Below, piece after piece: positions 39,337 to 64,000 of a stretch of 64,000 bases of DNA. Positions within the stretch are counted from its first letter, which is position 1; every line of letters begins with the position of its first letter. Under the pieces are notes generated by a model, which did not search any database, had not been told where the DNA came from, and saw only the letters and a list, made by a program, of their open reading frames with translations. Both the position numbers and the translations under genes were made by a program. The DNA is from Tubulanus polymorphus (taxonomy: Eukaryota > Animalia > Nemertea): positions 7,440,001 through 7,504,000 of the forward strand of contig NC_134025.1 of assembly GCF_964204645.1 (NCBI RefSeq), read 5' to 3'.

Positions 39337-39764
39337 CTTTATCAAGTTTATTCGTCGAATATAAAATCAAATCTGGTCGGATGAAAGCCGATATCGAGAT
39401 TAGTGAATGAAAACTTCACCGTGCGCAGCGGAATATTCCGGAAGGATAGATAGAATTTATGGCGTCGGCTAGTTTCCCGTGACGACGAGATTTCAGATTT
39501 TGACAGAAAAAACTAATCTAAACTTGATTTAAGTCATTAATGAATGATCAAAATGGTTGGAAAATTTAAAAAAACTTTAAAAAAATTAAACTTGGCAATT
39601 TTGATTGGGCAACTACCAATTCAATTTAATAATTTATTAATCACCAGGTGGCAGCAGCGTTTTGCGGGAAGTTCGGACGTAGTTTCCATGAATTCGCCGT
39701 CGTTTTAAGACATTTAACGCCTGAATATCACTTATTGACTAATGCTGTTGATTTATGATAAACT
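39337..39764. promoter_or_regulatory. Bidirectional promoter CCT4/DTL with CCAAT boxes, CTCF-like and E2F-like sites
   Basis: GATTGG ~39603, CCAAT ~39616, TCACCAGGTGGCAGCA 39641-39656, TTTGCGGGAA ~39662-39670. Confidence 0.55.
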
Positions 39765-42700
39765 ATGTATCCTTCTCTTTTTATGAAGAGAGAACTTGGT
39801 CGTTCTAGATTTAATAAGTGTGAGTATGGAAGCTGTGAAAAGTCGAATCAAGAGATTAGATTCAGCATATAGATTCATTGTTTTGCTAATTATCGAATGG
39901 AAACGTTTGTTTAGGGTTGTCTTTCTGTCTTAAAGGCAGTGTTGAAACTTAACCTATATAGAGTTGATTTAAGTAGGTTCTTCGCAAAGATTTCATGGTT
40001 GATTTGTTGTTTTGAATTGAAAAAATAACCGACGTAGCGGAACTCGTTCTGTCTCGTATTCAGATAGGCCTACTTGCTACTGTGTACTGCATCACTTCAA
40101 AGGTGGTCACATTGTGAGGTTAAATGAACCATCCATTTCAATGGGGTTGGTCGAAAGACTTAGGCTGAAACTAGAGTAGGCCCTGCCATCAACAATTCTC
40201 AGTCTCCACATTTTGTTCATCTTCGGTACAAATGTAACATTTACTTTACTGCATATTTTCAGTTGAAATTCCGGTTGATATATTTCTTGAAGACTATACC
40301 AGTTCATCATCTGATTTACATGTGATTGAAGGTCAAGATGGGGCAGTGAGTATATGATTCTAAGGATATGGCCGGCTAATCAGTGATGTCTTTTCATCAA
40401 GATGGGCTTGAGTTGAGCACTTAAAATTTCTTCAGTTAAATTGGCAATTTACAAATTCATTCATGTTGATCTTTCAGTCAAACAGTCTCATTCCACTTTG
40501 GTGTTTGGGTAGTTAGTGACCTATAGTTTGGTGGTTTTTTAACCTGATGAGCTTAAAAACAAAATATCTGAATATTAAACTAATCTACTGACATGTTACT
40601 GACAAGTGCTGAGGTTGTTATTTATGTGTTATACCCCCTGCTTATTTCCAGGTGGAGGTACCACCATTTACTGGCAGTTTTTGTAACGGTAAGTGAAGTG
40701 ATAAATCATGTTGATGTCTGCATTGTTTTTTAAAGTTTTTGAAAATATTCAATTTATGTATTTCAGATATATCTCAGGGGCATATGCTGGCAGTTGCCGA
40801 TGAAGATGGAGCTGTTATTATTTACAACACAAATCTATGCGGACCAATAGCTGCTATAAAAGGTCTGTTCGTCTTCATTATTGCATTGTGATAAGTAACT
40901 GTGCCATACTTTCGTCCTAATTAAAGACATGATTTCAAGCCCTGTCATCATCTTGAATGTCTTTATTTTGCAGAATGGTTAGCTCATACAAATGCAGTGT
41001 TTGATATTTCATGGCTGAAAGGTGAAAATAAATTACTGACTGCCTCTGGTGATCAGACGATCGTATTATGGGATGTCGTATCTGAGGAGAAACTAGATGT
41101 GTTTAAAGGTCATTCTAGTAGTGTGAAATCAGTTGGGCTTCAAACGGACAATACAAGTAAGAATCTTTCATTTTATATTGTATTTGTGATTAGTATTTAT
41201 AGGGTGTGTTAATACATCTAATATTTTGTTGTAATAAATTCATTAAATGTTTTGTAGATGTATTTGCTTCTGGCTCTCGAGATGGTCACATCATGTTGTG
41301 GGACAGAAGATATAGTAAAAAAGGTAAAGGGAATAAGTCGAGAAATTTATGGCTGATTAAGGTTTATTTTATGAGTTCTATAAGAAGTATATTCTTTGCA
41401 GGTGGTGTTGCTACTCCATTGAATTCTATACGTAATGCTCACTTGTTAAAGGCTTCTGCAAACAATAAGACAAAAAGAAAAAGTCGAACCAGTCAATCTC
41501 AGGTAAGAATGAGTCTCAAAAAATTGTATTATGCAGCAGGGCTGGCTGCTTGGATCCATTATCTGTAAGTGATTCATTTGCTTTCTAGGATTTCCAGCAG
41601 AGTGTTACATCAGTTGTATTTCAAGATGAGAATACAGTTATTTCATGTGGTGCTGTAGATGGGTATGTTCTATATATATTATTATTCAACCGATGAAGCT
41701 TTGAAAATATTTTGAGATTTTACTAAATTACGTTTTTGGTTTCCTTGCATCTAGGGCTGTGAAAATGTGGGACCTTCGTAAAAATTACAGCATCGCAAAA
41801 AAAGAGCCGATCCCGAAATTCACGTTTCAATATTCTGGAACTAGTGTCAGAAAACATGGTAAATCAGAAAGTCTATATGATCGATTGAATTATAGCGCTC
41901 TTCTCAAATTGATAACAACAATTCTTCTTTTTATTGTCGGTAGGATTCACTAATTTAGTGCTAGATTCGACACGTACACGTTTATTTGTCAGTTGTATGG
42001 ATGATATAATCTACCAATACAACTGCGCGAACTGTAACCCGAAACCGGTCGCCACCTACAAAGGTCATCAGAACTCAACGTTTTACGTAAAATCTAGTCT
42101 CAGTCCAGATGATCGATTTCTTCTTACAGGATCCAGTGATTACCACGCTTATATTTATGAGGTGAATTCAAACTGCTTTTTTCTTGAATTCTTGTTTAAG
42201 TTCATTATCTTTGAAAAAAAAAACAAGTTCATTATCTTTGAAAAAAAACAACTTAAAAAAGAAATTCTTTGTCTTTTTCGTATTAAGGTTGATAAACCTA
42301 AAGCCAGTCCAGTTATGTTGAAAGGTCATTCTGGTGAGGTGACTAGTGTATGTTGGTCACCATCAAATAATTTGAGAGTAAGTAAGATTAATATTAGATT
42401 GCGTTTGTCTCACTAGTAATAGATAAAATTGTAATAAAGTGTAATTTTTCAGATTGCCACATTATCCGATGACAGCACTGTACGCATTTGGAGAGGAGAG
42501 AGACATGGTGACACTGATGTAGCTACTATCGGTCAAATACTGGGTCAAGCTTGTCGGACGCATAGAGAAATTGGTTAGTGCGAAACTATTTCACGAAATA
42601 TTCTGCAATTTTTCAGAAGTGCCAATGGGCACCTCGTTCACTCGTTTTAACAACAGTTTCCATCTCTGATGAATATTCTTGACATTTCAGGTACGACATG

Positions 42701-43980
42701 CGTAGCTCGAAATGACCGAACATTAACAAGTTGTCACGGTGCTTTCCTGTCACCGATTAAAAATCCAAAGGTTGTCTCTAATCGTAGTATGCCTTTGCTT
42801 CCTTCTCCATCCTTCAAGTATCCGAATCTCAAAGCTTGGGTGGAAAATATGGCTCACAAATCGCCTCGAAAATTGCCACCTGCTTCACCTCGGAAACTGA
42901 TTATTTCACCACTGAAGCATCACATGTTAGGGAATTCTAAATTGGCAAATACCGAACATACAACGCCGGGTCGAGGTGTAAAACGCAAACGGGATGACGA
43001 AAATCTAGTCGACGCGTCCAAACGACAGTGTACGAACATCGCAGAATCAAACAACCGAAAACCATTGAGTCCTTGTTGTATCGATGTTCGAAATATCTTA
43101 CCAGATAAGTCCCGTACGTCAACTCGTAAACACTTAGACTTTGATTGCGTTGACGGACCACTGGGCCTCATTGAGAAAAGTCCTATTCTGATGGCAAAAT
43201 GTTCAAATGTACGTCGTTCATTCAGTTCACCGACGAGCAATTTACCTAATTACGTGCTCGATCCGAAACCTCGAGCTCCAGTTGGTATCGCTGCTGATCC
43301 ATCTGATATTGCCAAATCTCGAGACTGGCTCACTGAAATGAGTCAGAAACGTCGAACTTCAATTCAAATTGAAACCTCTGTTGCTAGTCCGAGAGGTACA
43401 GAGACTCCGTCTCGCCGACGTAGAAGCGTCGATCCGACATCGGCTTCTAAGAAAACACCTCGGCGAAGTCGTCCTAGTTCACCGGCAGTCGGGACTCCAT
43501 CAACAACCAGAACTAGTTCTCCTTCGAATTACCAAACTCCCAGCCGGCGAAAACGTAAATTAGATTTAACGACACCTTCATCAACTGGAGAGTCTCCATC
43601 AATGAGAAAGGTATGTGATTTTGAATATTTCATATTTACATCAAAGATCTTGTTTAACATAGAGAGATAGTACTTAATAGGTTATTACTGGCTTATTTGA
43701 GATATGAGCTTTCGCTACTAATGCATAGTAGCTTTATCACGTAAATAAGTAGAGTCAAGAAACAACGTAAAGTACTATCCATCTTTACATTTCACTGATT
43801 CAACACCAGGTTAATTACAGTCCCTCTACATATCAAAGATTTTGGTTTTATCTTGGCTACATGTAATTATAAAACACTGGATTCTGATTTCAGGGTAGAA
43901 GTCCTGCTGTAAAAGGAAATAAGTCGATACTACAATTCTTCTCGCCAGTATCTAAAGATAAAACTGGTGAAGGGGTATGA
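39765..43980 (+). CDS. DTL: Denticleless / CDT2 (WD40 CRL4 substrate receptor), multi-exon
   Basis: ATG 39765; VPPF, LAVADEDG, WLAHTNAVFD, LLTASGDQT, FASGSRDGHIMLWD, KMWDLRKNY, HQNSTFYVKSSLSPD; S/TP-rich tail and C-terminal PIP-like NKSILQFFSP; TGA 43978-43980. Confidence 0.95.
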
Positions 43981-45212
43981 TGAGAAAGCAATGGTGTGAC
44001 CAGTTCTTGCTTTGAATTTGCATACCGATATTTTAACTTTGTTTATTAATGTTTGGTTCCAATTTTAAACGGTAATTGTGGAATAAATAGAAGATTGTCG
44101 ATTATTTTGAAAAGAAATTATTGAATACTACAGAGCAGGGCCGATAGATAAACGTTCTGAAACTTAAGCTTGTTGGTAGTGCTGCGTACCATCGATGTAT
44201 AAAAGCCATCACTTCACTTCTTGTTTTATGAGTAATACATCAATGTATTATAATAATTTTTCAAACATTTTAGAATACTTTCATTTCATGGAAATCCTTT
44301 CAAACCCGGTTCTATGTGATATCTATATTTGTACCGGTATATTTAACATTTTACTGTAATGTATAGGGGATCTTTTGGATACATTTTAATTAGCATTATT
44401 GATTAATCTCAGCATTGAAAAATATGTCGATACATGTGTAAGCATATTGTACATAAGTTTTTTGTGAATGATTAAATATCTCATGAGAAAATGAAGTTTT
44501 TTAGATTTGATAATCTTTAGTGTCATTAGGTCCAATCTTAGGTTTTCTGAACATGGGTAGTCTCCGAACTCAATTGGAATTATGATTTTTTGGTGAAAGA
44601 GAGTCCGGTTTCAAGATATATATTGGAGAAGTGTTGAATCAGGTGGACACGCCCCTCTTGTGCTGTGATAATGGCCTGAGCAGGCCTCTGGAACTGAGGT
44701 TGCATCCACCTTCGATCAGAGTCCCAACGACTACTTGATTCCTTAAAAAACTTCTAAACATATGTAGATTTTGAAGGTGCTTTAAACCCTTTGCAACTCA
44801 TCGAGCAAAATGCCCAAAACTTTCCATTTTGAGATATAGGCAATTCGAAATGTATTAGTTGCACGGAAAACCGGTATATCAAAACGGATAGACCAGGAAT
44901 TTTTTAATCCAATTAGGTGGTTTGAAAGTGTTAAGGTAAGAAACTTGCTCACAAAACCACTGAATTACTGTTTTACCGAGGTAAACAATACCGATTTTGG
45001 ACGAGTATACAGTAATTAGGATATGCAAGTGATGTGGACACTGATAGAAGTTTGAAATTTCTCCTTTAAAACTCCTTTTATCCTGGGAATGACAGATCTG
45101 TTGGGACCTTATGACTAACAAATACTACATACACATTTATGATAAACAAATACAATATTTATTCATGATATAAAGATCCACCTGCTTTGAATGGTGTACA
45201 CAAATAATGTTC

Positions 45213-48200
45213 TTATTTTGTAACTTTAGATTTCAGCAGTTGTTGTCTGTTATATTCCCACATTAGTAGAGCACCACTGACATGAACGTTTAATGAACGA
45301 ATAATACCATACTGCGGAATCTCGACACAATTATCCAGTTCTTGAATTAGATCTACAGGAATTCCAGTTTTCTCATGGCTGAAACGATGAATAATAAGTC
45401 AAATAAGCTAGGATAAAACAAACTAGTTCTGTTTGTAGTACAGTAGACTTCGCTCAGTTCGGATCTTTTGGGACCATGAAATGTGTCCGACTTTAGTGAT
45501 ATCCGAATCAATTGGGATATTATGTATTTCATATATAGTGTCACAAAAAATATTTAAAAAAGCCGAGATGAACGGTTGAATCAAATACCGTAACCTACCC
45601 TAGTATAAGCATTGTTTTATCGGGAAATTTGAACTCCGATAGGCAAGCGCTATTAGCGGTCTGTTCTACGCCAACTATTGAGTAGCCTTTGCATCTCATT
45701 TCATTGATATACTCCTTCAACTGTATAGGCTTTACCTGATGACGGACAAAAAAGTGATCAACATTTTCATGAAAAGCTGGTAACTCCTAAATCCATCTCG
45801 GGTTTTAAAAAACCTAGAGAATATTTTTGTCGGTGTCTGATCTATGTGTGTATACATACTTCTTTAATGTTGATCCATCTTTCAGAGCTAACACTTAGAC
45901 TCTGAAAATTTTGGTTCTCCAAATACTTCATGCTTCCAATTACAAATTCATTTGCACCAAAGACTTCACAAGTACGACATAATCCTACACCATAAAATGA
46001 ACATCTCTGGTAGGTGAATTCATTCATCAATTTATTTTCCATTTTGATCAATCTGACTTACCACCTAGATTAGGTATTTTGTCAACAAGTGATGCTACAA
46101 GCAAAATTCCTGCATCTGAATTATGATGGCTAACTTTCCTATCTTCAATTTCCCTTTGTGCTTCTTCATTTGGAAACATGGTACGCCATGGTGTTATTTT
46201 CCGCTGAACATCGCCATCCAACAACTCAACATCTTCATTTTCTTATGAAATAGGAATATCCATAGACATTGGAAATTGAATGCTTCTGAATCAATAATGC
46301 TTACTTAATGAACTTACCAGCGCCTTTCATCTTCCAAGTCAAGCTGTTACTTGAGCAACTTTCTAATTCAGATAACTTCTCATTAACAAGAGAAATAAAC
46401 ATACTATTCAGATCAGGCATGTAAGTGAGGAAATCTGTAGGCGTAAGCCATTCATCATCTGCTAGTCCACTAAGTCTTGGAATCGTGTAGAATATACTCT
46501 AAAATATTGTTAGGAATAAATGCTATTCAAGTTACATATATCTAAAAGATCTTTGTTCACAATTATGAAACGGTTTTACCTGTATTGAATAATCTTTCAA
46601 AGGGTCGAACTTGAACATATAATGATTCTGGAGGGCATGGATACTTTTTGATGAATTCCTAATATAATAAATACCGGTTTGTGTAAAATAGAACGTAAAA
46701 TCATTTTTGTATCGGTATTGATGTAAGGAGTAAAACACTCACCCAATTGGCTGCATTAGATACTCTTGCATTGTACCTAGTATCGAGTGACTATAAAGTA
46801 TTTGATTTAAAGCTTTTTCTTTACTTAGATCCCACATCTTAGTCAGTATAACTTGAGCAAAAACCCGTACATTAAACTGATGGGACAAACACAGCGGAAA
46901 CACAAATTGCAGAAACCGGCCAAAATATTCCTCCTGCATATAAGATCAATTTTACATGGTTGATTGATGGTACATGGATAAAGCTCAAGCTGAAGATGAT
47001 GTATCTGTACTTTACCTGTTCTGCATTATCAGTAAGAAGCTTCCCGACATGAAATGTAATCAGCATCAAGGAACAGATAAATGCTGGTTTTTTTGACGAA
47101 ACCTAGAAGTAAATTGTTCACTGGCGGATAACTTCAAACCACCACCATTTCAGATGTAGCTAGTCACTCATCCTAAGCATGTTCCACGTCTGAGTCAACT
47201 TAATTCAAATAAATTGTATATTGTACCTGATTTAGGATTGTCCAAACATGAATATCCCTAAGTGATGCAAATCGATTAAAGATTTTGATGAGCATCCATT
47301 CAACTAGTATTCTAACCGATGGCTGTGTTTCTTTGTTCAATACTTCACATAAGTATGGAATATATTTCTCTTGCGCTTCCTAAAACACATTGTAGTCCAA
47401 ATACTACGAAACAGTACCTGACTGAATCACGTAACAGTAGAATCAGAAAATCAGATTAACAACAATGTTTGATATTACCTGTGAGAGAAATGGCTCTAAC
47501 ATGAGGACAGTAGCTATTAGTCGATGTTTCTCCCTATGACTCATAGAATTTGTAAAACATCGATATTTCTTCTGTTGCAGAACCTGTTTATATTTTGCGA
47601 TTGCTTCATGTACAAAAGTTTCAACAAATGATCGATGATCTTCCTCGTTAGTTTTCAGGTGCATTAACGAAGTCAATAACATAACACGAACCATGTGATC
47701 TTCTCTCAAATCACTGTAAATTGAAGAAATAGAATATGTACACAGAACAGATGCCGTCATCTTTTCAAAAAGCAAATCTGTAATTCTCTCCATCTCACCT
47801 GTCTTTCATGTCCATGTTTTCATAAATGGAAAAGGTATTCAGATAGGACTTCATTTCTGCATTGAACCTACAGGAAAGTTAGTTGCATGTACATGACTAT
47901 AAGCTTGATTCAAACTGAAAAGTTGTCTACAGGACTTACCTCAAACATCTCTTATGTACAGGTCCAAATATGGCAGCTTTTAGAATGTAAAGATGATAAT
48001 AACTAGCCGAAACCATATCATTTTCGAGTATCCATTTTTTACACCAAACAGACACTAGAATGTTTATAATTCCATTCTTCGCATCACCGAGTTGAAAGAT
48101 GCGATCAGCAAACTAAACATATATTGGAAAATATTCATTAATTGAAATTCAAAATATTGCTTAATTAACTTCATACTGTATATAACATTTAACCCTATAC

Positions 48201-51200
48201 ACATATATACCTCTCTTAAACAATCATCCAAATTCGTATTGAGTTTTGCCATTGATGTCATACATGGAGTGTACATGATTTCAATGAGAACTTGATATGC
48301 TGGCCAAAAGATATCTTTATTTTTGAATTGTTCAATCAATCTCGTCCAACACATATCTGACATGTCAATCATTAGTGTGATATCAAATTTTAGGATCTGA
48401 AAATAAGGCGTTTAATGGCAATACATACTACCAGGTAATTTACAGAAAATCTGTCAAAATAAAAACAATTGATGCAGAACCCTATCATAGATTACCTCTC
48501 CACATAGTAATTTTATACACTTGAATATTGGAATGATAGCTGGACTAGCACATGTATCCAATCCAGTTTTAATTGCCTCAAGTAACTGAGTCAGTCTCAG
48601 TTCATCAGTAAACATTGCTCTTATGTGCTCATGTTGCAAACAGAATTGCATGCACTGCCACTGACTGGTGTTATAACGTGAAATCAGACGACCCCATTTG
48701 TGTTTGAAGTTTCCTTGTGCCGAGATATCATTGCTACAATTTGAAAGATATCAATCCATTATCTTTCAGTTATAAAACCAGAGAATTCTCAAAAGGAAAT
48801 CGTGAAAGATTAACATACCATTTGTTAGGTAAAAATTCTGGCTTCTTGATTTCTGAAGTAACAATTTGAAGATCACAGTATTCGAGGATCTTTGACTGAA
48901 TCTTTTCGTAGAGGAGTACATTTCCTGAAAGTTTACACAGATTAGCAAGTACAGCAGTGCCAGTAACTAAGCTCAATTTCTTTTCATGAGATTCCTAAAA
49001 TAAAAAATGAACACAATTCAGTTTAGAGTTATACAGTACATCTGTGTGATCTGTAGGTAAGGAAACTACGTATACCTGGTTTTTTGCAGATTTTAGTAGA
49101 TCTATACAAGAGTCAGTGAAAATATTCAACATCGCAGCCATATCCGAATTAGGTTGAACACAAGAAATTACTTCAACACATCTTACGTATAAATCAACTT
49201 TAGCCACATCATAAAACTGAAATGATACATGAAATTTGAAAATGAAAATTTTACACCAGAACTTTTGTTTTAGCCTATAGAGACCATAACTGATACCTAC
49301 ATCAGACACTTCATGACTAATTCTAATTGATATGTAATCCAGCATCTCTTTTCTACATGTTGAGATAACACTTGAAATAAAATGTTCTAGTTTATCACCA
49401 GTTATGGGACTTGCTATGGAATGTAGATGGACAATGAATGAAAATATCACATCAATCTTATGTCGACTCATGTAAACTCTTGTAGCCACTGTATTAAGTA
49501 CTTCAATAACTTTACTGAGTAAACTTGAAAGGCTATCATTGCTGTTATCAACAGAGATTATCTCAGCATCGACACATAACAAGAGGAATTTTGTAAATCC
49601 ATCCAATATACTTTCTGAAATGGAAAAAGTAAATATTGAGAAAGTTTGAGTTGTTCATTATGAACCATGTAGAATGAATGTACCGGTATAGAATGCATTA
49701 TGATTAATCATACCGATATCGACAGGAGTTTTTTCCATTAATTCGACAGTTGTTCTTAAATATATCCTGGTCTGAGTAGAACTCCATGGGCCATCGCCAT
49801 CTGAGAGATATTTCAGTTTATCCACAGCTTCTTTCCACAATGATGATCCTCTCTCTATCACATCATCATTGACAACACAGAGATATGAAACTAAAGTAGC
49901 CTGATCTACACCTCCAATATCCTGGAAATAAAAGGTTCACCCATAAAAACATCGGTTTTTCAATTCTTAAAGGGTGAACAACGACAAAACATCTATGGCA
50001 TCTATGCGCAACAGTTAATCTTACTGTGTTGATCAAATTCAAAATTGCTTTTGTCAAGAACCACTTGATTCCAATCCTTGTTTTAACAACAACTGTTGAT
50101 GTTCCAATGAGAATTTCTCTGAAATTGAAAAAATAATCCCGATAAATAACATTCAAAAATATATCATATGATGAATGTTACCGAATCAATACCAACTTTA
50201 TAGTCTGAACATCTTCATTCTGCAGTAAACATAAATTTGGCAATTTTGCTAAACCTTGACTTATGAAGAAAAGTACAGATCCTGACCAGGATATAATCTT
50301 CATGCTACCAATAAATCTTCGCCAAAAAGCCCCTGGTGAAGATAAATATTCAATAACCGTTAAATAGAATCTAAGAAGTAAAAGGTAATTATTTTTTACT
50401 GTTTACCTTGCTGATTTGAATCACGCTTCATTGAATCAAAGACACCTTTCATAAACTCATGAAGCTTAGAAGCTACAATTGGGCAACTACCAACTTCAGC
50501 ATCATCATTCCTACAAAAATATCAAATTAGGAATGCAACATTTTCAAAGTTGTCAAATTTGACTTTATTTAGGTTTGTTATTTACCTATAGAAGTATGAT
50601 GCTTCATTGATCAACATAAGGAATGGTTTTGCAAAGAACTGAAAAGGTACAAAATTTCAGTCTTTTATATTCCAATGTCACAATTACCATACTGGTTAAG
50701 ATAATTTTTTGATATCATGGAAGATAAAGATGATAGACATTCTGACAAACCTCTGTTTGTTGAGTGACAATAGGACAGACTCGAGGATCAATTGATAATA
50801 GCTGTTCACATCCCCATTTCTGTATGAATGAACTTTCATGTCCAAAAATCCGATGGAACAAATTGAGAATCCAACTACTATGTAGGTATGCACATCCATC
50901 TACAGTGGCAAATACATTAACATTTACAGTAGAATTAACTTTAATAAATTGTCATTTAAGAAGTAGCTATCAATCGTACTTTCAGTATTTTCATATGTAG
51001 CATCGATTAATGATCTCAGTCTTGGCATCAATGGTTTTAGCACATGTATCTGCAAAAAAAGTCAAAAGGATATATCAGTAGCAGTGATGTCAATATACAC
51101 ATTAGGAATTAATTGTTGTGGGTCATGTAATTATTTCACTTACATGCTTTTCTTCGAGCATTTCAAGAATGAGGATGTAATCCTGCCAAAGAGAACTATA

Positions 51201-52226
51201 TCTTTTAACATTTTCCAGATCCCAGTAGAAGACATTATTAGAAGTTTTTCGAGGAAAACTACTACAATTATTTTCACACATTTCGATGATTCTTTTCAGA
51301 ATGTACAGACTACGTTTTCTCTGCAAGGTATCTGCACTGCTAATACCATTTTGCAAAATCATCCAGATGTTGTAATCCTTCCAACTATCAACAACAGACA
51401 GGTTGAATTCTACTTGAAACAGATAATCAGCAACACCACAGATAATCAACAGAGTACGCTCACTTGAATCGGTGCGTTTGGCAACAGCTTGTAAAATGCT
51501 TCCAAATATTACAGACTTATTCCTCAACAGAGTAGGCACAACAGTATGCAAGAACTGTAATGTAACGTTTTCATCACCATCTACTAGAATATCTTTTGTT
51601 AACTCTTCGATAGAATTGATATGATGCTTGCAGTTGACCGGGTCCTTGTAAAATATCCAAAGGAACATCTTTAACACGCTGCATGAGTGGGACACTGAAA
51701 GGTTGTTGCTTTGTAAACCGGAGTCAGAGTGGATATATTTCTTCGGAAATCCTGTATCATCCAGTTCCGTTGTCTCATTATCAACATAGTCAGATGATTG
51801 AGCTATTTTAAGAGACCTTAAACTTGCTGTCAGTAGAAGCTGAATAACTGGCTCTGCTAAATCAATCGGAACCATAGAAAGACACTCGTTAACAAGTTCA
51901 ACGATCGATGAAAATATTTCTGCATCATTTACTGCCTTCGTAAGAATACATGAACATAATTCATTGAGCACCTTCAGTAGAACGTCATTAGATCGTATCT
52001 GATCGTGAGGCAGTGATAGCCCTCCATCACTGTCGCTATAATTGTAACATGGTGGTGATTCAAGCGCTGTTGTTGTTGGTACTACTAAGTTCCTCAGCAG
52101 GGTTTTTAAGAAGTGACACTCTTTACTATCAATTCTGACCTTTCCACCATCATTTACACGATGAAAAAATGCATCGATCAACGATCTTACACATGAATTT
52201 GGTGTGAAAAATTTGGAATTATCCAT
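45213..52226 (-). CDS. TARBP1: TARBP1/TRM3 tRNA (guanosine-18-2'-O)-methyltransferase, multi-exon
   Basis: RKRSLYILK and [11 protein letters not shown] in first exon; C-terminal SpoU domain [13 protein letters not shown]|[18 protein letters not shown]|[33 protein letters not shown]; TAA 45213-45215. Confidence 0.93.
45441..45580. mobile_element. Probable pogo-like MITE remnant in TARBP1 intron
   Basis: TA-CAGTAGACTTCGCTCAGTTCGGA start resembles other TA-CAG elements here; right end decayed. Confidence 0.35.
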
Positions 52227-52379
52227 ATTTCACTTCTTTAGATGATTCAACATGAGAGGCTCCACATTTTCGAAAAGTTGTTTGCGTGTGATTGTAACAG
52301 AAATAAAATAATAAATTTGTTTACAGGTAGATGTAATAAATCTGAAGCATCCGCTTATAAATCTAAATCGGGGAGAAAA

Positions 52380-54877
52380 ATGGTAAATGTTCTTCTGTAA
52401 TTATTATCCAACTCATCTTCAGTGCTATGGGAGCCATCGCATTGATTCCTTGAAATATGTTAAAGGATTATATAGCTGTCGTTTTTGAGAATTCGTAGGG
52501 CATTTCTTCTAAAACTTTCCTGAATGAAACGAAAATTGTATCCCACAAATTCAATTCAATCTTACAATATTGAAAGGGTATCTACAAATCTTCTACCTGG
52601 GTGGGTACGATTTTTAGGCCACTTGGGCAACACAAAGTTTTGTCCCAAGTAGGCTACCGGTGTATTGATTTCACTTTTCGTCAAGAACGAATGATGTTTT
52701 TGACACGATCTTGATATTTGGTTTATGGCATTGATTATGCCTACTACGCAAGTGTATTGGCATTCTTAAAGTTGGCCCGGTTGCAATTAAGATGGTCATT
52801 ATTTGTTATTCGGCAAAATCTGCTCTTCTGCACATGAATTTGCTTGGGAAATAAATTTGTCTTGGTATGAATATGTATCCCTCTAAGCCTTTTTAGTGCC
52901 TACCATCACAAGAAAAATTGGATCAAACAGATTCAAGTGCGCCATCCTGTGAGATCTTTCTTAGGCCTCTAGTTTCTTAATGCTGATGGTTGTTACATGT
53001 ATTATGATGGATTTGCTATTCAATAGACCTATTGTATACATTCTTTGCTTGAATGGCGTCACTTGGCAGTATTAGTCGTACATGTTTCATGGTTACCAGT
53101 CCGTGTCATTGATTCAAGATATAACCTGGATGACCAGCTCTTTCTGTGACAACTTCTTGTGGAGTTTAGTAATCTGAAAATATACTCTGTATATGACAGT
53201 ACACTATCCAGAAATACCATGCAATGTGTTTGGGTTGTCTTGCTGCTTATTTCGTCTTGGTGCATTCTGAGGGTAACAATGGTTTGTCTTATGGAATTTG
53301 GATTACCCAGTATATTGTTCCCATTATCACAGGGAGTGTGTATTTTGTTACCTCATTTCGATAGCTAAGTTGTAGTTCATGACATGTACTTTAATTGTGG
53401 GGAGTTTCAAGGTCATTAGTTTCTGTTCATCATGGGACTTTGAATATTCAAATTGAAATCAGATTTTTGAGCATTTTTCACCATTTTAGAAGTGGGCATG
53501 GTGTCTCAGGACTCTAGTCTAATATCTAGCCGTTGTTCCTCGTTGTAGGGGACCATAACAAAGCCTGGTATTCAGACTACCAGGACCCCTAGTAATGTTG
53601 TTGATTTAATTTTTTCAGTGCGCACAAGTTACTATATGTGAGGTGGATGAAGATCTCAAAAAAACTCTGAAAAGGTTTAGATTTAGAAAACAGAAAAATA
53701 CTGCTGCTCTTATTTGTAAGTAGTTTAATCAATGAATTAGATTTGACCCAATGTAGAATGGATTGAAAAAAATTATTACTTATAATCATTAAATTTATGA
53801 AATGCATAATTGAAATTAAGAAACTTAATCATTGCTGTTTAATTTGCCAAATTTGACATTTTTTCGTGTCTAGATATCCAAGGAAACTAAAACGATGGCA
53901 CAATTATTTTACAACCTATTTATTCAATTTCAGTGAAGATTATTCCAGAAAAACTACTTGTAGTTTTGGATGAAGAATATGAGGTAGCTTACCAATAATC
54001 CTGTTTTCGATCATTCTGGAAATTGTCAGGATTGTTTATTGTATGTTCAATTATTTTTTAGGATAAAACTATAGAAGACCTCGTTGAAGAGTTACCATCC
54101 CATTTACCGCGATATGTTGTATATAGTTATGTTAAAAACCATGACGATGGAAGGATATCTTACCCGTTATGCTTTATATTCATCAGCCCATCAGGTAAAG
54201 TTGATTTTTGTTAAATTGATTTAATGAGGAACCTGCATAAACAGCAATCCCACTAGTTGGCGTGCTGAAAATTAGGACAGTTGTCTCTTGTCAGAATTAG
54301 TGCATTTTCAATGAACTTTGAACTGGATTTTTAGACTCCAAACCCATATATTATCACAGCATCCACCAAATATACAATACTTTCATTCTACTCGCATATC
54401 GGTATAGTCTTCATAAATAATCAATTCATTTAGGAGAAAAGTTCATTTAGATCTAATTGAAATGTAGAAGAAATCGAAGGCGGACAACCAACTATCTACT
54501 AGTGAACCTGGCGGATCCTTGCCTTGGTTTCCTTGATTGCCACAGTAGCACTGTGGAGACCGCATAAGAATTTTAATTTTTCTTGTTGTAAACAAATACA
54601 GTGGTACTGGTTTATGAACCTATATACTCCATTCATGTATTTCAGGGACAAAACCAGAACTTCAGATGATGTATGCAGGTAGTAAATTGGAGGTTGTCAA
54701 AGAGCTTGGACTGTCCAAGGTAACTATTTTCAATCGCTAGTATCTTGAATAGTTTTTGAACATTTTTATCCAAATCTTGAGTTACCGGTAACTCCTTGTC
54801 TTTAGGTTTTCGAACTGCGAAGTGTAGAAGAATTTACAGAAGAATGGCTGAATGAAAAATTATCATTATTCCGATAA
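52380..54877 (+). CDS. GMFB: Glia maturation factor (ADF-H family); exon 1 contributes only ATG
   Basis: ATG|GTAAAT at 52380; exons ~53619-53715 ([19 protein letters not shown]), ~53933, ~54062 ([14 protein letters not shown]), ~54646 ([12 protein letters not shown]), ~54806-54877 ([15 protein letters not shown]). Not in ORF track because exons are short. Confidence 0.93.
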
Positions 54878-55473
54878 GATACTGGTAATCTGATACTCGA
54901 GGAATTTTTGTATCCCGTAATTACTTTTATCTATTGTTTGGTGCTGCATGAAAATATATAATAATGATTGAAATACTTACACAATTTTTGTATTACACCA
55001 ATGCATTCAGAGTTTAATTGCTTGAAAATTTCTTTGTTAACAAAAATAAAAAGGTACATGTATTTGTAAAGAATATATGATCTGACTTTCTGAGATCGAA
55101 GATATTTGTAGTGTACTGTAATATTAATCAACTGCATTTGTTTGGCATTCCATTTCGTCAATAATGTCAGTGGTAATAAACATCTGTGATGTACTACTAA
55201 GATTTTGCAAACAATCAGAATTAATTATTTCATCATGTATTATATGATGCATAGCATTTTAAGGATACCCGGTATCTGTATTTTGAAAAGAAACCTTCAT
55301 TGATAATCCAGATCAATCAATTTCAAAGATTACATCAGAACATGGATTACTGGTCGCTATGCATATCTAGACACTGAATTTTATAATTTAAGTATTTCAT
55401 TTGTTGAGTTGTATATACCTAAGTATACGAGACTAAGAACACCTCCCAACAGAGCTTCTGCAAGAATGTAATA

Positions 55474-55594
55474 CAGTAAACCTTGCCCAACTCCGACTGG
55501 CGAAATCAGTCAAACCGAGGTAAGCGAACTCACACTGATTAATGATTTCATTTTTGTATGGGTTTGCCATGTCCGAGTAAGGCAAGGTTTACTG
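55474..55594. mobile_element. Tc1/mariner(pogo)-like MITE between GMF and MKKS 3' ends
   Basis: CAGTAAACCTTGCC ... GGCAAGGTTTACTG perfect 14 bp TIR, TA on left. Confidence 0.75.
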
Positions 55595-56090
55595 TTCCTG
55601 TCATTTATGGACAATATGGTTAAAAAGCTGATGTGTTTTTATTAGATTATATCAATTTAATATATTATCAAAGAAAAATACAATATATGTATACTTAAAT
55701 ATTTGCTAATTTTGATTTTATTTAGTTTGTTGGTCTGACACGGCAAAGGTCTTTTTATCTTGGGAGTTCAATTCAGTTGTATTGCTGATCTTATACGAGA
55801 TATGGCCATCACCCTCCTTTTTCGCCACTAGCATCGCCTTCTACTCTTAGAGAATTTTGTTTTCCTCATGAATCCACATGATAATGATAAATCCATGTCA
55901 TGAAATGGTAACGCGCATCAAACTAGAATACATGTAAATTGATTTATTCAAAACCATCACACAATAATATAATTCACACAGCAAATTGATTTCAATCGAT
56001 TCCTACTCACATACGCAATCAAAAATCAATGTATTAAAATCAGCCATTAGAACGAACAAACGATCACAAATGGGATTAGAAGGAAGCTGA

Positions 56091-58023
56091 TTAATTCAAA
56101 TCTTGAATCATACATCCTATTTTTAACATAGTACTTGCTGTATTAAAAATGAGTCGCAGACTACTAACTTTCGCTACAGCTAAATCACAAATTTCAACAT
56201 CACTTCCTAATACTTTTTTGTCAAAGAGGGAGTCTACATAGCCGAATTTGTCAATTTCACACAAATTTTTAAAGTTTTCCGTGTCAGTTCTGGCTACTGC
56301 ACCGCACTGACATTTCGCTTCATCATCCAACCAGCAATGATGGTAGTGATTATCCCGCCAATGTTCTAATATGGTTTTGTCACCATGTCCTGGTATTGTA
56401 TCCATAAATCCCCGCTTAAAATATCGTAACGAAGTCAACAGTTGACTGTCAGAACATCCAAACTTCGCAGCAAGGCTTTTTCTATTGGAAAATATCTGCA
56501 ACACAATTAATTGTTGATAGATTAGATTAGGTGCAATTGATTTAGAATGAGGAGTATCAATGGAGGTATGTTGTTGTTACCTTACTGTGAAGTTTCGTAG
56601 TGATCAAAGTTTCAAAGCAGCCACCGCCTGGTAATATATCTGGATGGAAGATACTCATCTGAAGCACGTGTTGAACTACATTGCTGACATACTGAAAATT
56701 AAAAAAAATTTCGGATAAGAGCATTTAACAATATCACACAACACACTTTGATATATCGAATGATGTGTACCTTCAGTTCCTCTAATGCTTGTTCAGACCA
56801 ATTGCAAAGAATGAGAGTTTTCGTGGCTGAATTGCGGTCATTTTTTAGGTGATAGAACTTCTTTTTATTGACAGTTACCACGTCGATACCATCCAACTTG
56901 CCATAGCATTCACTCAAACTCTGTTCCTTCAATGATATGACTGGTGCACAACCTACAAATATTCAAGAATACTATGGATCATAAACTGTGTACCAGCTGA
57001 TAAATTGATTGACTATTGAACATTACCTGTCAAATGTGTAACTGATTTCATTGCCGCACTTCCAAGCCTATCAATAACATGTACACTATTCTCATGAAGG
57101 AACTGCTGTAAGATTGGATGAACAACTTTTTGACAAAATACCACACTGACACCATCATTCACCAACTGCTGGCATACCTCCATCCACAACTGTATGACAA
57201 CATCATTTACAGCAGTAGTCTGTAGATTCCTTAACTCATATTTGGCATGGATGAACTCATTAGAATCCCCTGATAACGACGTGACTAGCACAACCACTTT
57301 CAATGGTTTTGTAAAATGGCAGGAGTCACTGATTACGCTATGTACAAAAGGCAGAAGAACTCCCGTCCATAATCGTGATTCAGTCACGTCCAATCCTTCT
57401 ACACCGAGTTTCAGAACCTCATTGAAACTACTGTTTTGATCTTCCTGTGAAGGAACTGAATTGAGAAAGCTCTCGAGCAGCAGTTTACACAGAAAGTCAA
57501 GATTAGTTTGTTTAACGTAACATGCATGTTTAGGTCGTACTATTCCGTTCACTAGTCGCAACATTGCTTTCAATGATAAATCATTTTCCATACCAGCAAT
57601 CTTCACTTCTTCGATGAGTGATAAAGTTTCGTGGCCGAAGTACGCAAACAATTCAGAAACAAGCGGAAGTTTTAGTCCGGTTTTAATACCATTTTCAATT
57701 AGACTTAGAGTTAGTAACAGTGTGTACAATCCGCCATCTTTGTATTTTTCTAAATGACCAGCAACGGACGTGACAACGAATTTCAGGTAAGGTTTCGAAA
57801 TTGATAAACAGTTTAAAAGTCTCCCAGATGTTGAAGTAATCGTCAAATGTCCTAATGACTGATTGTGTATGATTTTAAGTTTGCTCCTTGGTCCGTAACA
57901 CGACTGCACAATCTGTCTCAGAGTACACAGACTAGTGAGTACATCCTCGTCAGAAATGTGTTTATAGGTAACAATAGATTGTTGTTTCATACACACTCGC
58001 CCACCCGGAGACATAGCACTCAT
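56091..58023 (-). CDS. MKKS: McKusick-Kaufman/BBS6 chaperonin-like protein, 4 coding exons
   Basis: IVQSCYGP..LKIIHN..G....TSTS.RLL, DGGL, CQKVVHP.L, VIDRLG, TLILCN, LPGGGCFET, CQCG; stop TAA 56091-56093; acceptor AG immediately precedes ATG 58021-58023. Confidence 0.92.
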
Positions 58024-58173
58024 CTGTAAGATTAAAACATGAATACTATCTCTAATGATTCAATTTTATTGCTTCAACAAAAGTATTTAATTCAAATATA
58101 GTATTGATAACTTGTTTATTGATTACTTTTTATTGTAACTTACAATTTTTTATTGGCTCCGATTCAGTTTGGT

Positions 58174-58323
58174 CTATTTCACATTGCGTTGTTGATCAGA
58201 AGCTGATGAGGTAACACTTGTTTTAGCAAATTTCTGAAGTCCATACGTAGTTAAATGTATGCCACCAAATGCTATAACAACTGCTAAAATCTTATTTCTC
58301 ATAATCCACTGTTTGAATTGCAT
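58174..58323 (-). CDS. uMKKS2-like small single-TM protein (49 aa) MQFKQWIMRNKILAVVIAFGGIHLTTYGLQKFAKTSVTSSASDQQRNVK
   Basis: Read directly (below ORF-track cutoff); resembles my recollection of human MKKS uORF2 (W.RKN...G.HL.TY.LQ..AK.SV). Confidence 0.75.
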   Translation of the reverse strand: MQFKQWIMRNKILAVVIAFGGIHLTTYGLQKFAKTSVTSSASDQQRNVK

Positions 58324-58344
58324 TTTCAGTCATGTGCTGACTGA

Positions 58345-58758
58345 TTATTTCTGAAATATGTACAGTAAATTCAATATTACAAGACAAATACCGGTATAAG
58401 CATGACCTACATATATTGATCTGAATCAATAAATCGTTTTTTTTTTCAAAGGTGCTGTGTCTAAATTCTTAAGTATGATTTCTCTCAGTTTTATAGAGGT
58501 CACCTTAGATTGTCTGAGGTGTCATGTACTAATCATCTACCAGCTATTATCATAGAGTCAAAGGAAGTGTAACAGGCCTATCTCTTTGATACTTACATCT
58601 TTTACATCTGATATTTTGGATGCTAAACGTTCTTGTACACTCAATTCTATAGATTCAACCAATGGAAACGTGGCTAAGTATGAAGCACCCATTATCAAAC
58701 AAAATGACAGGATTTTATGCTGTTGGGCAAATAACACCGCATTTTTCAGCAATCCCAT
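58345..58758 (-). CDS. Middle small ORF of MKKS leader (55 aa if spliced 58597-58758 + 58345-58350), hydrophobic segment
   Basis: ATG 58756-58758 MGLLKNAVLFAQQHKILSFCLIMGASYLATFPLVESIELSVQERLASKISDVKD|K*; GTAAGT donor 58591-58596, CAG acceptor ~58351-58353. Confidence 0.55.
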
Positions 58759-58781
58759 CTTTAGAATAGCCAAATCGGCTG

Positions 58782-58973
58782 CTATTCTTCCTGATCGGCT
58801 GAACAGAATTTTTCCTTGTCAAGATTGAGACCAAATATGGAAAGTTTTCTGTCCTCCTTTCTTACTAGTGTCTCGTTGTATTGAATTTGGTACCAGCCGT
58901 AATGAATCAACACCAGGCTAGGAATAGTGATAACAGTAACGTAATACTTCTTTAACAACTGCAACACTCCCAT
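58782..58973 (-). CDS. uMKKS1-like small single-TM protein (63 aa) MGVLQLLKKYYVTVITIPSLVLIHYGWYQIQYNE...
   Basis: ATG 58971-58973 just after a TTTCAG acceptor (~58988); LIH.GWY motif matches recalled human MKKS uORF1. Confidence 0.8.
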   Translation of the reverse strand: MGVLQLLKKYYVTVITIPSLVLIHYGWYQIQYNETLVRKEDRKLSIFGLNLDKEKFCSADQEE

Positions 58974-59297
58974 CGCGTTCAACAGACTGAAATGATAGAA
59001 ACAACCCATTTACCTAATATGATATCACCGACAAGTAGATGTTTTCTTTTGATAAATAGCACAACCATTCCAGAAACGAACAGCCTTTTTAAGATATCAT
59101 AACAAATATCAGACAGAAAACACACCCAGTTAGTCTCAAAATGACGTTTCACAATTAAGTTTAGCAGTTATTTAAGATTCAACCAATAAAACTAGTCAAA
59201 TAGCTATATTTTAAGGAAAATGGAAAAATACGGAGATTCTTACGTAAAGAAATAAAGTCAACGACCTTGCAATCGGAGCGAGTGAAGTCAATCTTAA

Positions 59298-62218
59298 GAA
59301 TCAGCAGAACATGGCGTCACAAGCCCCGGGGCTTGTTACGCCATATCTGACATGGCGTCACAAGCCCCGAGTAAAATGCAGACTATATATAATTCACGCG
59401 GAACGAAGATATATGTTCGCGTCCAACAGACCACGTTTTTAAGTCCGATACGACGTGTAAAACCTGAATGATATAATTTCAAGTACCGGTATGTCAATGT
59501 GTAATGAATTTCTATTTTTTCTTAACTTATTGTCTAAACGTATACACAGTACCGGTACTTATACGTTATTTTGAAGTATTCCGTTCAGTGCAACCACTTT
59601 GAAAGAAAATTATATCCCTTTTTTACTTAAGATTTTTATGTAAAATTCTTCGAATATGTTTTTTGCAGGTTTCCGTTATGGTGCGAGACGATCATCAGCT
59701 ACATTTACCCAAAGCGATTTTTGTATATTTTTACATATGAACAAAATAAAAACAACGATTTATAAACTTTCTAAGACTTAATTATTGTTGTACTACTGAT
59801 TGAAATTTAAGATAATCAGTCACAATTATTCATTTATTTCTACGGAAATCCAATCAGGTCCTCTCACGCCATGAAAATTGAAGTTATTCTGCAGACCATT
59901 TAGGGCTCGATACGCCATATTGGCTGCTGAACATTTGGGGCCTGACACGCATAGAAGACAAATCGCGATTTTTCTAGCAGTATTTGTTTTGTTTTATAAG
60001 ACTTTATGATTATGAACAATATATATAAATAATTGAAACTAAAGATATAATTAGTGGCAATTAGTTGCTTTCATAGAAAACTGATCGGGTCCTCTCACGC
60101 CATATTGGCGGCAGAACACTTTGGGGCCTGACACGCCATGTAGAAGACAGCGTGATTTTAGGAGCTTTTTGAAACAATATTTGCCTTCTTTTCTAAGTCT
60201 AAATGATTGACAAACCATGTATAATGATCAATCTTTGAATATTTATGAAAATTATGCATCAATTGAAGCTATTCTGCAGACCGTTCGGGGCCTGACACGC
60301 CATATTGGCTGCAGAACATCTGGGGCCTGACACGCCATGTAGGAGACAGCGTGATTTTAGGAGCTTTTTGAAACAATATTTGTCTTTTTTCTAAGTCTAA
60401 AGGATTGACAAACCATGTAGAATGATAAATCTTTGAATATTTTTGATAATTAGTGACAATTATTCATCAATTGAAGCTATTCTGCAGACCGTTCGGGGCC
60501 TGACACGCCATATTGGCTGCAGAACATCTGGGGCCTGACACGCCATGTAGGAGACAGCGTGATTTTAGGAGCTTTTTGAAACAATATTTGTCTTTTTTTC
60601 TAAGTCTAAAGGATTGACAAACCATGTAGAATGATAAATCTTTGAATATTTATGATAATTAGTGACAATTATTCATCAATTGAAGCTATTCTGCAGACCG
60701 TTCGGGGCCTGACACGCCATATTGGCTGCAGAACATCTGGGGCCTGACACGCCATGTAGAAGACAGCGTGATTTTAGGAGCTTTTTGAAACAATATTTGT
60801 CTTTTTTCTAATTCTAAATGATTGACAAACCATGTAGAATGATAAATCTTTGAACATTTAACACAATTAATGACAATTATTCATTTGTTTGTACGGAAAA
60901 CCGTTCGGGTCCTCTCACGCCATGTCTCAATTGAAGCTATTCTGCAGACCATTTGGGGCCTGACACGCCATATTGGCTGCAGAACATTCGGGGCTTGACA
61001 CGCCATAGAAGACAAATCGCGGTTTTTCTAGCAGTATTTGTTTTGTTTTCTAACACTTTGTGATTGTCAAATCATGAATAATATATAACTAATTGAAACT
61101 AATAATTAGTGACAATTAATTGCTTCCATAGAAAACCGATCGGGTCCTCTCACGCCATATTGGCTGCAGAACATTTGGGGCCTGACACGCCATGTAGAAG
61201 ACAACGTGATTTTAGGAGTTTTTTGTAACAGTATTTGCTTTTTTCTAAGACTAAATGATTGACAAACCATATAGTATGATTAATCTTTGAACATTTAAGA
61301 GAATTAGCGACAATTATTCATTTGTTTGTAGGAAAACCGATCGGGTCCTCTCACGCCATGTTTCAATTGAAGCTTTTCTGCAGACCATTTGGGGCCTGAC
61401 ACGCCATGTAGAAGGCTTAGTGATTTTAGGAGCCATATTGACTGCAGATCACACTAGATTGGAGCCTGGCTCACCATATATGTTTTTCTAACATTATCTA
61501 TGTTCTTCTAAGACTAATTGATCAACAAATCATGTGAAATAGATGAATGATTCATTGAAATGTAAGATAGTTCATTGAAATTTTTATTCTGTAAAACTCA
61601 TTCAGTAGATATGTAATGTTTTTGTATTTTTCATATGCTGGCGAAATATGTGATTGTTTAAATTGTGTTTCAAAATAAAGTGTGTACACTGCATTAGATT
61701 AACAAACAACGATCAATTTCTATTCTGTAAAACTCATTTTGTAAATATGTATGCCAGTGAAGTAGGATAAGATAAGTTTTTAATTGTGTTTTAAGTGTAA
61801 AATGTTTTCAATCTATCAATACATTCCGTAAATAGATATGTTAAGTTTTACCTTACCCTGGTATTTTCCTGTTCCATCAGATTCTTACAAAATAAGAAAT
61901 TCATATCAAATAAAGTTTGATTCAAACATTACTCGTTATAAGTTATTGATTAAAAGTAATCTTCTGAATCAAATCATTTTCATATATGCGATGTAATATG
62001 TAGTTCTTATTATGTATATATAGTACGTTGTAAATCATCTATGACAAATAAATATCCAATCGAATATTTCAACTTCGGAAGAAAAATCCCGCGAGACGTA
62101 GTCGACGTTTCATCTCCTGCATAGGATTTGATTTTCATTTTATGTTTACCACATGGCGTGTCAGGCCCCAATATGGCGTGACAAGCCTCGGGGCTTGTGA
62201 CGCCATATGCAGCAGGTC
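59298..62218. mobile_element. ~2.9 kb non-autonomous DNA transposon, TTAA flanks, GA..TC termini (Kolobok-like), palindromic TIRs
   Basis: TTAA 59294-59297 and 62219-62222; left GAATCAGCAGAACATGGCGTCACAAGCCCCGGGGCTTGTTACGCCATAT vs reverse complement of right GACCTGCTGCATATGGCGTCACAAGCCCCGAGGCTTGTCACGCCATAT; no transposase ORF. Confidence 0.8.
59780..61480 (+). repeat. Internal tandem array, ~208 bp unit, with ~1.05 kb higher-order duplication
   Basis: GAAGCTATTCTGCAGACC recurs at 60265, 60473, 60682, ~60933; each unit carries paired GGGGCCTGACACGCCAT motifs; GAAGACAAATCGCG at ~59953 and ~61008. Confidence 0.93.
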
Positions 62219-62994
62219 TTAAGATTGCCCTAGATGATCGGAGCCGGTGTCGCGGACGCACTAAATTCCGGTTCCCCCCATTTTGGCGCTAATTTTAATC
62301 GCCTTCACCCGGATTTCACCGCCACAACTTTATTGCATGACTGTAGGCCTACTTATTTTTGTATCGGGAGCAGCCGGTTCTACTATTTATAATCTTTTTT
62401 GGCGGATGTTCCGGCCGCGGCTCGGTGGTTACGGGTTTACATACAATAAAACCTCAAGAACCTCGTTACTTATAGTTTACAACGAGATCGTCAACGAAAT
62501 ACTGAGTTTCGAACGAAGAAATTTCCGTGTTCCAGTTAAAACAAAGTCGTTATTTCCTTTAATTCCCATCGGTTTTAACGAGATTCCCGACGGTTTTAAC
62601 ATCGGCATTTTTACAACGAATAGAACGAACAGTATAAATTTTTGTGCCAAAGACTTTTCGTCACGAGGTCGCAGCAGAAACATTACAAACTTTCGAGACA
62701 GCCGTAACGACGGGCGCGCGAGTTCTGATAATTATCGCTGGCAACAATTTACTGTATTTCTGAAGCCTGCATTTCTGAAGTATGGTTAGCTTTTAAAAAA
62801 AATCGTTTACTTTTTCCAATCCAAAAATTCGCCATTGATTGTCAATTTGTCATGGTAAAAATCCCCCGTTTCTCCATATTCCAACTACCAATCAAAAATT
62901 GCCATCAAACGGCGAAAATATAATTAGCCATATACTAGAGAAAAACCAAAAAATATTGGCTGGATTTGGAAAAAATGTTTTACTTTTTAGCTCT

Positions 62995-63018
62995 CATTCA
63001 TTTCATTTCATTTCATTT
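62995..63018. repeat. (CATTT)n microsatellite
   Basis: cattcatttcatttcatttcattt. Confidence 0.7.
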
Positions 63019-64000
63019 CGTTTATTGTAACTTTGTACAAAGTACAGTATACAAATATCGTTCATGTAATACATAATATAATATAAAACACCATTTCGCA
63101 GATTTGACGAAAACCTGTCACAGAAGAAATTGGAAATTCACTCAAAGACAAGCAGATTCCGTTTATCATATCTCATATGAATGAAAACTTCAGAACATTC
63201 CAACAAGTTTCTCGCTGGTCTTGGTGTTATCAAAAATTCATAAAGACTAGTCTTTATGAATTTTTGGTGTTATTGAAAAATCAAAATGTTTTACACTGGT
63301 GAACGTTTTTAAGTCACGTTCTTTCTAAAAACAGATCAATGGCAGTGCGTACAGCGGCCAGATTACACTATGACCGAAATAGTTGGTAATGAATAAATTG
63401 ATCAATCGACCCGATGTTCAAAATCAAAGCCTTCACCAATAACCTTAAGTCCAAAAGTGGTCTTAATCTTGAATGGTCTTAAGTGGTTAGATTGGGTACT
63501 AACGTGGTCTTCCGCGACTGGTCTCAAGCCTGCCTATGCAACCGATCCCAGCGCTGGGTGAATCAAACTCAAAGCCTTGTTATACTGAAGCTCGACTGGA
63601 ATTATTGTAACGAGGTTTGACTATTTTAACCCTTTTAAATAGATTTGTAATTTTATCATCTTGTCACGCGCGTAGGGTTCGAATCCTTTCTATTTCATAC
63701 CACCGGGTTTCGGGAATTCTTATAATATTCATTTTTTTGTATTATACGGATCACACCTAATGTATCAATAAACTGGAAAATATAAGCTCAGGGACTATCA
63801 AGTTTAAATGTGCATGAGTAGACCGAGTTCTAACTAAAATCAATTAAAACAAGTGAGTACAGGTGATTGTACAGACAATAGATTGAGTTTGAAAGTGTCT
63901 GAGTCCGAGTCGATACTATAATTGAATAGTGTGATTCGATTTAAAGAGCCAAGAGCTGAGTCAACTGTAGATCACAGAAAAATAACAAAAACAATTTGTA

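Follow-up and report, generated by a model that had tools for sequence, protein, structure and literature searches.

Does the ribbon worm Tubulanus polymorphus make three small proteins from the leader of the messenger RNA (mRNA) for its chaperonin MKKS, and how far back would such an arrangement go? The question arises from a 64,000-nucleotide (nt) stretch of its genome (NCBI RefSeq assembly GCF_964204645.1, contig NC_134025.1, positions 7,440,001 to 7,504,000 of the forward strand; hereafter the window), in which three short open reading frames (ORFs), here called A, B and C, lie upstream of an MKKS gene on the minus strand. An earlier note, made from the letters alone, had taken them for one spliced, operon-like leader. 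In human, the MKKS leader encodes uMKKS1 and, to judge by the names, uMKKS2 after it. These peptides are 63 amino acids (aa; Q9HB66, LOC128706665, micro-MKKS63) and 50 aa (V9GZ13) long, respectively (Akimoto et al. 2013, via PMC11837024). We consider it probable that the nemertean locus gives rise to a polycistronic message in the order uMKKS1-B-uMKKS2-MKKS.

Leader exons and their joining to MKKS

The long minus-strand ORF that starts at 58023 carries a chaperonin domain (PF00118; Pfam E-value 2e-33) and is 100% identical to the nemertean protein [quoted passage not shown]. With the RNA-supported introns removed, the gene model gives the exact translation of RefSeq isoform X1 (P0059, 564 aa). 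The main ORF downstream of the leader is thus MKKS/BBS6-like, with 30% identity to the protein P0003 across its full length. An Rfam scan of 55000-64000 returned 0 matches. The features of the locus are as follows.

58597..58986, minus strand: exon with ORF A and most of ORF B, the second exon (the first being outside the window); one piece in contigs X3 (to 58988) and X2 (to 58976), with the acceptor AG ending at 58987
58782..58973, minus strand: ORF A, 63 aa, counterpart of human uMKKS1 / micro-MKKS63 / LOC128706665, from a family search, the ESM Atlas, by-eye identity and a structure model
58597..58758, minus strand: first 54 codons of ORF B (55 aa in all), which matches Nucella P0041; the last codon and stop are at 58345-58350
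58351..58596, minus strand: intron inside ORF B, 246 nt, GT..AG, skipped in the X2 and X3 contigs
58144..58350, minus strand: exon with the end of ORF B (its final codon and stop, 58345-58350) and the entire ORF C, from the contigs and the ORF map
58174..58323, minus strand: ORF C, 49 aa, counterpart of human uMKKS2, from by-eye identity to the human peptide
58024..58143, minus strand: intron ending exactly at the MKKS ATG, 120 nt, GT..AG, skipped in the X2 and X3 contigs
56091..58023, minus strand: MKKS/BBS6-like coding sequence, 564 aa, in exons 57027-58023, 56771-56952, 56581-56691 and 56091-56495
55943..56090, minus strand: 3' untranslated region (UTR); the contig ends at 55956, beside an AATAAA at 55948
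59238..59243, minus strand: upstream donor proposed in the earlier note, present in the DNA and used by no contig

Contigs from four sequencing runs (X1-X4) were aligned to positions 55700-60000; a fifth run, X5, contributed one stray record only. No run is recorded as RNA. X2 and X3, which come from two different studies, were taken as RNA assemblies because GT..AG introns are missing from both at several genes. X1 is unspliced and DNA-like, spanning 55700-59279, and X4 consists of short unspliced pieces only. X3 is a single 2,455-nt contig running from 58988 to 55956 with five introns out (two in the leader and three in MKKS), and X2 is an 869-nt contig that covers 58976 to 57742 and lacks both leader introns. 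Both leader introns are skipped in two of the four runs, with 207 letters on the shorter side, and the 2,427 nt of the window model plus 28 nt of upstream exon equal the length of the X3 contig. The small ORFs are spliced into the MKKS transcript in contigs, not single molecules, from two studies, and one spliced unit that joins A, B and C to MKKS is supported. When the spliced leader was shuffled 2000 times with its dinucleotides preserved, three non-overlapping ATG-initiated ORFs of at least 45 aa never occurred (the maximum was two).

Most of the structure drawn in the earlier note agrees with these contigs: the three ORFs lie where it had placed them (58782-58973, from 58758, and 58174-58323); the donor at 58596 with the acceptor at 58351, and the donor at 58143 with the acceptor at the MKKS ATG, are both GT..AG pairs skipped in X2 and X3; and the A/B exon, the C exon and MKKS, which it had joined into one transcript, are joined in X3, with X2 connecting the leader to MKKS. 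The claim that standard annotation had missed the small ORFs also held up, in that neither the A peptide nor the C peptide has an exact copy in a collection of 15 billion proteins that contains the RefSeq MKKS isoforms. The first exon was wrong, however: at the claimed donor (~59240-59245) the DNA has a GT at 59243 that no contig uses. The upstream acceptor proposed near 58988 is correct (its AG ends at 58987), and it is there that the X3 contig exits the window, leaving a 5' end of 26 nt that the window does not contain: allowing up to 3 mismatches gave 0 hits, and the best placement has 8 mismatches. For this reason, the most likely place of exon 1 is past position 64000, on the far side of a high-copy element at ~59280-62235. 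The depth of this element is ~260-4300 compared to 38.6 for single-copy sequence (X1, up to 60000), its ends are inverted over 43 nt, and tandem units of ~208 nt lie within it. It is probably a DNA transposon of a non-autonomous kind that sits within MKKS intron 1 or upstream of it.

The unplaced 26 nt could alternatively be a spliced leader that is also added at the internal acceptors, freeing C and MKKS from a spliced-leader operon. Their absence from the window, the window donor that no contig uses, and the MKKS ATG directly behind an acceptor would all fit such a history. Yet the internal acceptors are paired with good GT donors and are cis-spliced in X2 and X3, and the same loose end was found on no other gene in 39051-59050, which holds well-covered genes, among the 14 of 39 loose ends listed (contigs lose short tips). 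A minor trans-spliced form may exist beside the cis-spliced one. The high-copy element lies upstream, the window ends 5 kb away, and our literature searches found no published report of a nemertean spliced leader. On balance, we regard trans-splicing here as extremely improbable.

Relatives of the three small ORFs

ORF A belongs to a widespread protein family. A HMMER search of 1.84 billion representatives (E <= 0.001) gave 32 hits, of which 30 are credible relatives and 2 are unrelated repeat proteins; two of the hits are long models, and the other 28 were aligned with ORF A. Residues H24, W27 and Q31 are invariant across the 29 aligned sequences. The 30 proteins found by the ORF A profile search include Nucella and Anopheles entries, and a Helobdella gene model (P0021) also carries a relative. 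In the ESM Atlas, ORF A scores 0.95 to an arthropod-rich cluster and 0.94 to a cluster of 63-aa chordate "LOC128706665 homolog" proteins (205 of 256 features), and LOC128706665 has been equated with "alternative protein MKKS" in a preprint (bioRxiv 10.1101/2024.10.01.615885). The same source presents a link of the human ORF A ortholog to complex IV as a prediction.

For comparison with human, we used the peptides of PMC7066179 (Supplementary Data 1) and counted identities by eye. ORF A and the human uORF1 (upstream ORF 1) peptide (63 aa), compared without gaps, are identical at 13 of the first 31 residues (binomial P = 3e-5 at a 12% background). ORF C and the human uORF2 peptide (50 aa), compared without gaps from the start methionine, are identical at 18 of the first 37 residues and at 19 of 49 overall (binomial P ~5e-8 at the same background). 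The resemblance to uMKKS1 and uMKKS2 that the earlier note had pointed to is thus borne out, for ORF A by the Atlas cluster as well, and the sequence comparisons support A and C as counterparts of the two human peptides.

Other searches returned little. Pfam holds nothing above its cut-off for A, B or C, with a match of ORF C to DUF3185 falling below it, and the best ESM Atlas score of ORF C (0.79) is uninformative. A direct word-index search with ORF A gave no candidate, a PDB sequence search with its profile gave 0 hits, and structure searches yielded 0 Foldseek hits and a best VIA-align Z of 3.0, to generic helices only. The earlier note gave each small protein one hydrophobic helix. The structure model of ORF A has a high-confidence helix at residues 11-31, predicted to be a single membrane helix, and on the Kyte-Doolittle scale A, B and C reach means of 1.26, 1.92 and 1.53, respectively, over their best 19 residues; hydrophobicity by itself is weak evidence, as 23 of the window's 217 small ORFs pass a 15-residue hydropathy cut of 1.9, which among the three is passed by C only.

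ORF B is without a described human counterpart (human uMKKS0 was outside the comparison). It matches residues 74-124 of P0041, a gene model from the gastropod Nucella lapillus, with 16 of 51 residues identical (31%) and a score of 73 that none of 5000 plain and none of 3000 block shuffles reached; the next best of the 217 window ORFs against P0041 is ORF C, with a score of 41. At 125 aa, P0041 looks like an artificial fusion of A and B homologs. Because its first half is an ORF A homolog and the B match follows, a gastropod retains the A-then-B order. At another locus (L002), an ORF A relative is followed by a weaker B-like ORF, with a score reached by 3 of 3000 plain and 9-28 of 3000 block shuffles.

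It could be argued that A and C are the functional microproteins and that B is either a regulatory uORF specific to the lineage or a duplicate in decay. ORF B has no Pfam family and one strong relative only, and its structure model is of low confidence (mean predicted local distance difference test score, 67). Moreover, the X2 and X3 contigs share differences from the window and X1 at 58805-58806, 58649 and 58653, which comprise a silent change and one that alters the residue in ORF A, and two changes in ORF B, both of which alter a residue (codons 36 and 37). Against this view, the Nucella match exceeds all shuffles and the other 216 window ORFs, the B-like ORF of L002 stands in the same place after A, and ORF B combines a strong start context with a splice junction crossed in frame. 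This reading of B appears very unlikely to us.

The three ORFs may be related to each other. Against the profile of the ORF A family, ORF C reaches 13 bits and ranks second of the 217 window ORFs, a score that was reached by 0 of 1000 plain and 0-1 of 1000 block shuffles; hhalign gives 80% for ORF C against the ORF A family. The score of ORF B against ORF C is above those of all 3000 block shuffles. By contrast, pairwise scores of A versus C and A versus B are at chance level (reached by 1399 and 4411 of 5000 shuffles, respectively), and ORF B is not detected by the ORF A profile. Judging from these sequence scores, B may be a paralog of C, and A, B and C may be old paralogs.

Proposed working and age of the message

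If the leader mRNA is polycistronic, it would yield three predicted single-pass mitochondrial microproteins in abundance and the MKKS chaperonin sparsely. Scanning ribosomes would start mostly at ORF A, whose ATG has G at -3 and +4. ORF B (A at -3, G at +4), ORF C and MKKS (A at -3 in both) would be reached by leaky scanning and by reinitiation over the spacers, which after intron removal measure 23 nt from A to B, 21 nt from B to C and 30 nt from C to the MKKS ATG; both processes, and the length limit of reinitiation, are reviewed in PMC4705651. The ten ATGs before the MKKS start would keep MKKS output low. Local folding at the four starts has z-scores of -1.3, -1.3, -2.3 and +0.9 compared to mononucleotide shuffles. 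The stop codons add a further constraint under the 55-nt rule (as in PMC3951408), which may not hold in nemerteans: the stop of A, 185 nt before a junction, would trigger nonsense-mediated decay unless B is read across that junction, and the stop of C, 30 nt before the next junction, would be safe. The RNA would then be immune to this decay only if both B and C are read. At the human locus, uORFs are reported to repress MKKS, with poly(A) signals present within the leader (PMC11837024), and the repression is described as partly sequence-dependent (PMC7530721). The human 63-aa peptide is reported as the dominant product, supporting respiration; it is the main protein of the locus in brain and is needed for microglial respiration (PMC13577902).

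A shorter message may also exist, as suggested by the following feature.

58065..58154, minus strand: cluster of four AATAAA motifs (first bases 58154, 58134, 58120 and 58070) downstream of the ORF C stop codon, candidate signals for early polyadenylation

These four are among six minus-strand AATAAA motifs in 55800-59300, and a fifth lies at the observed 3' end. The cluster would allow a short A-B-C message, comparable to the alternative polyadenylation in human. Taken further, the cluster and the ten ATGs upstream of MKKS could mean that the assembler merged overlapping isoforms, namely, a short A-B-C mRNA and a separate MKKS isoform whose start lies within the ORF C exon. Of the seven isoforms annotated in human, three are reported to be without the MKKS ORF (PMC13577902), and a contig across two genes proves no single transcript. 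However, no branch interrupts the contig of X3 between A and the poly(A) signal or that of X2 on its way from A into MKKS, and no MKKS contig with another 5' end was found among the contigs listed, although contigs lose rare forms. We judge merged isoforms to be rather unlikely.

Under the simplest history, the last common ancestor of protostomes and deuterostomes would already have had the A-C-MKKS unit; ORF B would have been added in spiralians, likely by duplication of ORF C, and ORF A would have moved before a DnaJ gene in some lineages. The sequence similarities to human make it likely that the multi-protein message is as old as bilaterian animals.

Several observations weigh against a polycistronic message of this age. 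The ATGs of the leader are not depleted (10 observed vs 11.9 expected); therefore, the full RNA may yield very little of the C and MKKS proteins. The short A-B-C isoform is not seen in the contigs, which cannot show RNA ends, and the assembled contigs support each exon join, not one full-length molecule, its ends or its level. The mitochondrial location of A, B and C is a prediction borrowed from the human leader peptides, for which such a location is reported (PMC7066179). No invertebrate relative of ORF C was found in the ESM Atlas, at six loci with an ORF A relative or among stored proteins, and the identity of ORF C therefore comes from the human comparison. On the supporting side, codon-level constraint of the kind that the earlier note had expected is indicated for ORF A: every one of the 15 pairwise comparisons among six coding sequences gives a ratio of nonsynonymous to synonymous differences (pN/pS) of 0.34-0.70, values that are biased downward by the protein-guided alignment and by the choice of hits by protein similarity, with pS saturated.

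The partner gene is another observation that weighs against a polycistronic message of this age. Among the six loci with an ORF A relative (L001-L006; contigs of only 1.1-3.0 kb), no MKKS was found beside the relative. Three have a DnaJ-domain ORF 14-56 nt downstream of the ORF A relative, L002 has the B-like ORF downstream, and L005 and L006 have nothing recognisable; in the gene model of the leech Helobdella, ORF A is fused to a J domain.

L001:18-1021, L003:60-1059, L004:69-1054; P0021: ORF A homolog and DnaJ-domain ORF, probable second bicistronic arrangement

The J-domain partner is presumably DNAJC4-like. These loci resemble the nemertean one in that a member of the same microprotein family sits at the 5' end of a transcript-like contig shortly before a chaperone ORF, but they differ in having a J-domain partner instead of MKKS, with no B or C between. 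The stability implied by the "ancient bilaterian operon" of the earlier note was overstated, as A stands before DnaJ in the leech model and at three of six loci. Could the link to MKKS not be ancestral at all, with ORF A a mobile passenger that was placed before MKKS independently in chordates and nemerteans? The DnaJ arrangements of L001, L003, L004 and P0021 are compatible with this idea, and the ORF A-family tree, in which 1 of 26 inner branches is supported, cannot order the MKKS and DnaJ states. Nonetheless, it would require A and C alike to have come before the same gene on two occasions, and we give the passenger scenario hardly any credence.

A broader proposal, possible in our view but doubtful, is that A, B and C arose in tandem, as paralogs, from a single ancestral microprotein of the mitochondrial, single-pass type and form a cassette carried on a chaperone-mRNA leader since the bilaterian ancestor (that of MKKS in the nemertean and human, and of a J-protein in annelids and others). 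Such a cassette would co-produce a small respiratory-chain assembly module and throttle the chaperone, and B would be its undescribed spiralian member.

Neighbouring genes and comparison with known systems

On the plus strand, a spliced gene at 53670-55552 converges on the MKKS 3' end; its X3 contig has a depth of 784 and four GT..AG introns listed, and a partial exon model gives only a 41-aa ORF. Farther away, two genes lie head to head at 39340 (minus strand) and ~40150 (plus strand). The former, which we take to be CCT4-like, is a second chaperonin-family gene less than 17 kb from MKKS; the latter is a WD40 gene, presumably DTL-like.

The human arrangement is already known, and the nemertean occurrence and ORF B would be the new part. 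The literature that we consulted treats MKKS uORFs as mammalian, and our searches of it found no report of the uMKKS arrangement in invertebrates or of ORF B; the supplement of PMC7530721, which these searches did not cover, may already list invertebrates. With both peptides ahead of the MKKS gene of a ribbon worm, the arrangement would go back to the protostome-deuterostome split, an age that is rare for polycistronic small ORFs (smORFs). Deep alignments mark H24, W27 and Q31 of ORF A as functional residues, B is an extra family member, and natural cases of A without MKKS separate the peptide's own job from the control of MKKS translation. More generally, real conserved proteins lie concealed in the 5' UTRs annotated for invertebrates and are wrongly fused in some gene models, as those of Nucella and Helobdella suggest.

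The human and nemertean loci share the main gene, two leader ORFs of nearly equal length (63 and 49 aa in the nemertean) whose peptides match gap-free from the start methionine, and candidate poly(A) signals in the leader. They differ in that the nemertean has a third conserved ORF (B) between the two and an intron that separates C from the MKKS ATG. In addition, the host here is a protostome, whereas the review (PMC11837024) gives conservation across mammals.

Polycistronic smORFs are known from other animal genes. The fly pair CG42568/DnaJ-60, dicistronic according to FlyBase, was not used as a parallel, since DnaJ-60 is marked as its 5' member. A fly smORF survey found no polycistronic smORF arrangement common to fly and human (bioRxiv 10.1101/2022.04.24.489283). 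As in Mocs2A/Mocs2B and the Drosophila polycistronic smORFs (bioRxiv 10.1101/2022.04.24.489283; PMC4528330), several proteins would be encoded by one processed mRNA without trans-splicing; unlike in those loci, the MKKS leader of T. polymorphus places three small ORFs, two of them shared with human, before a functionally unrelated ciliary chaperonin.

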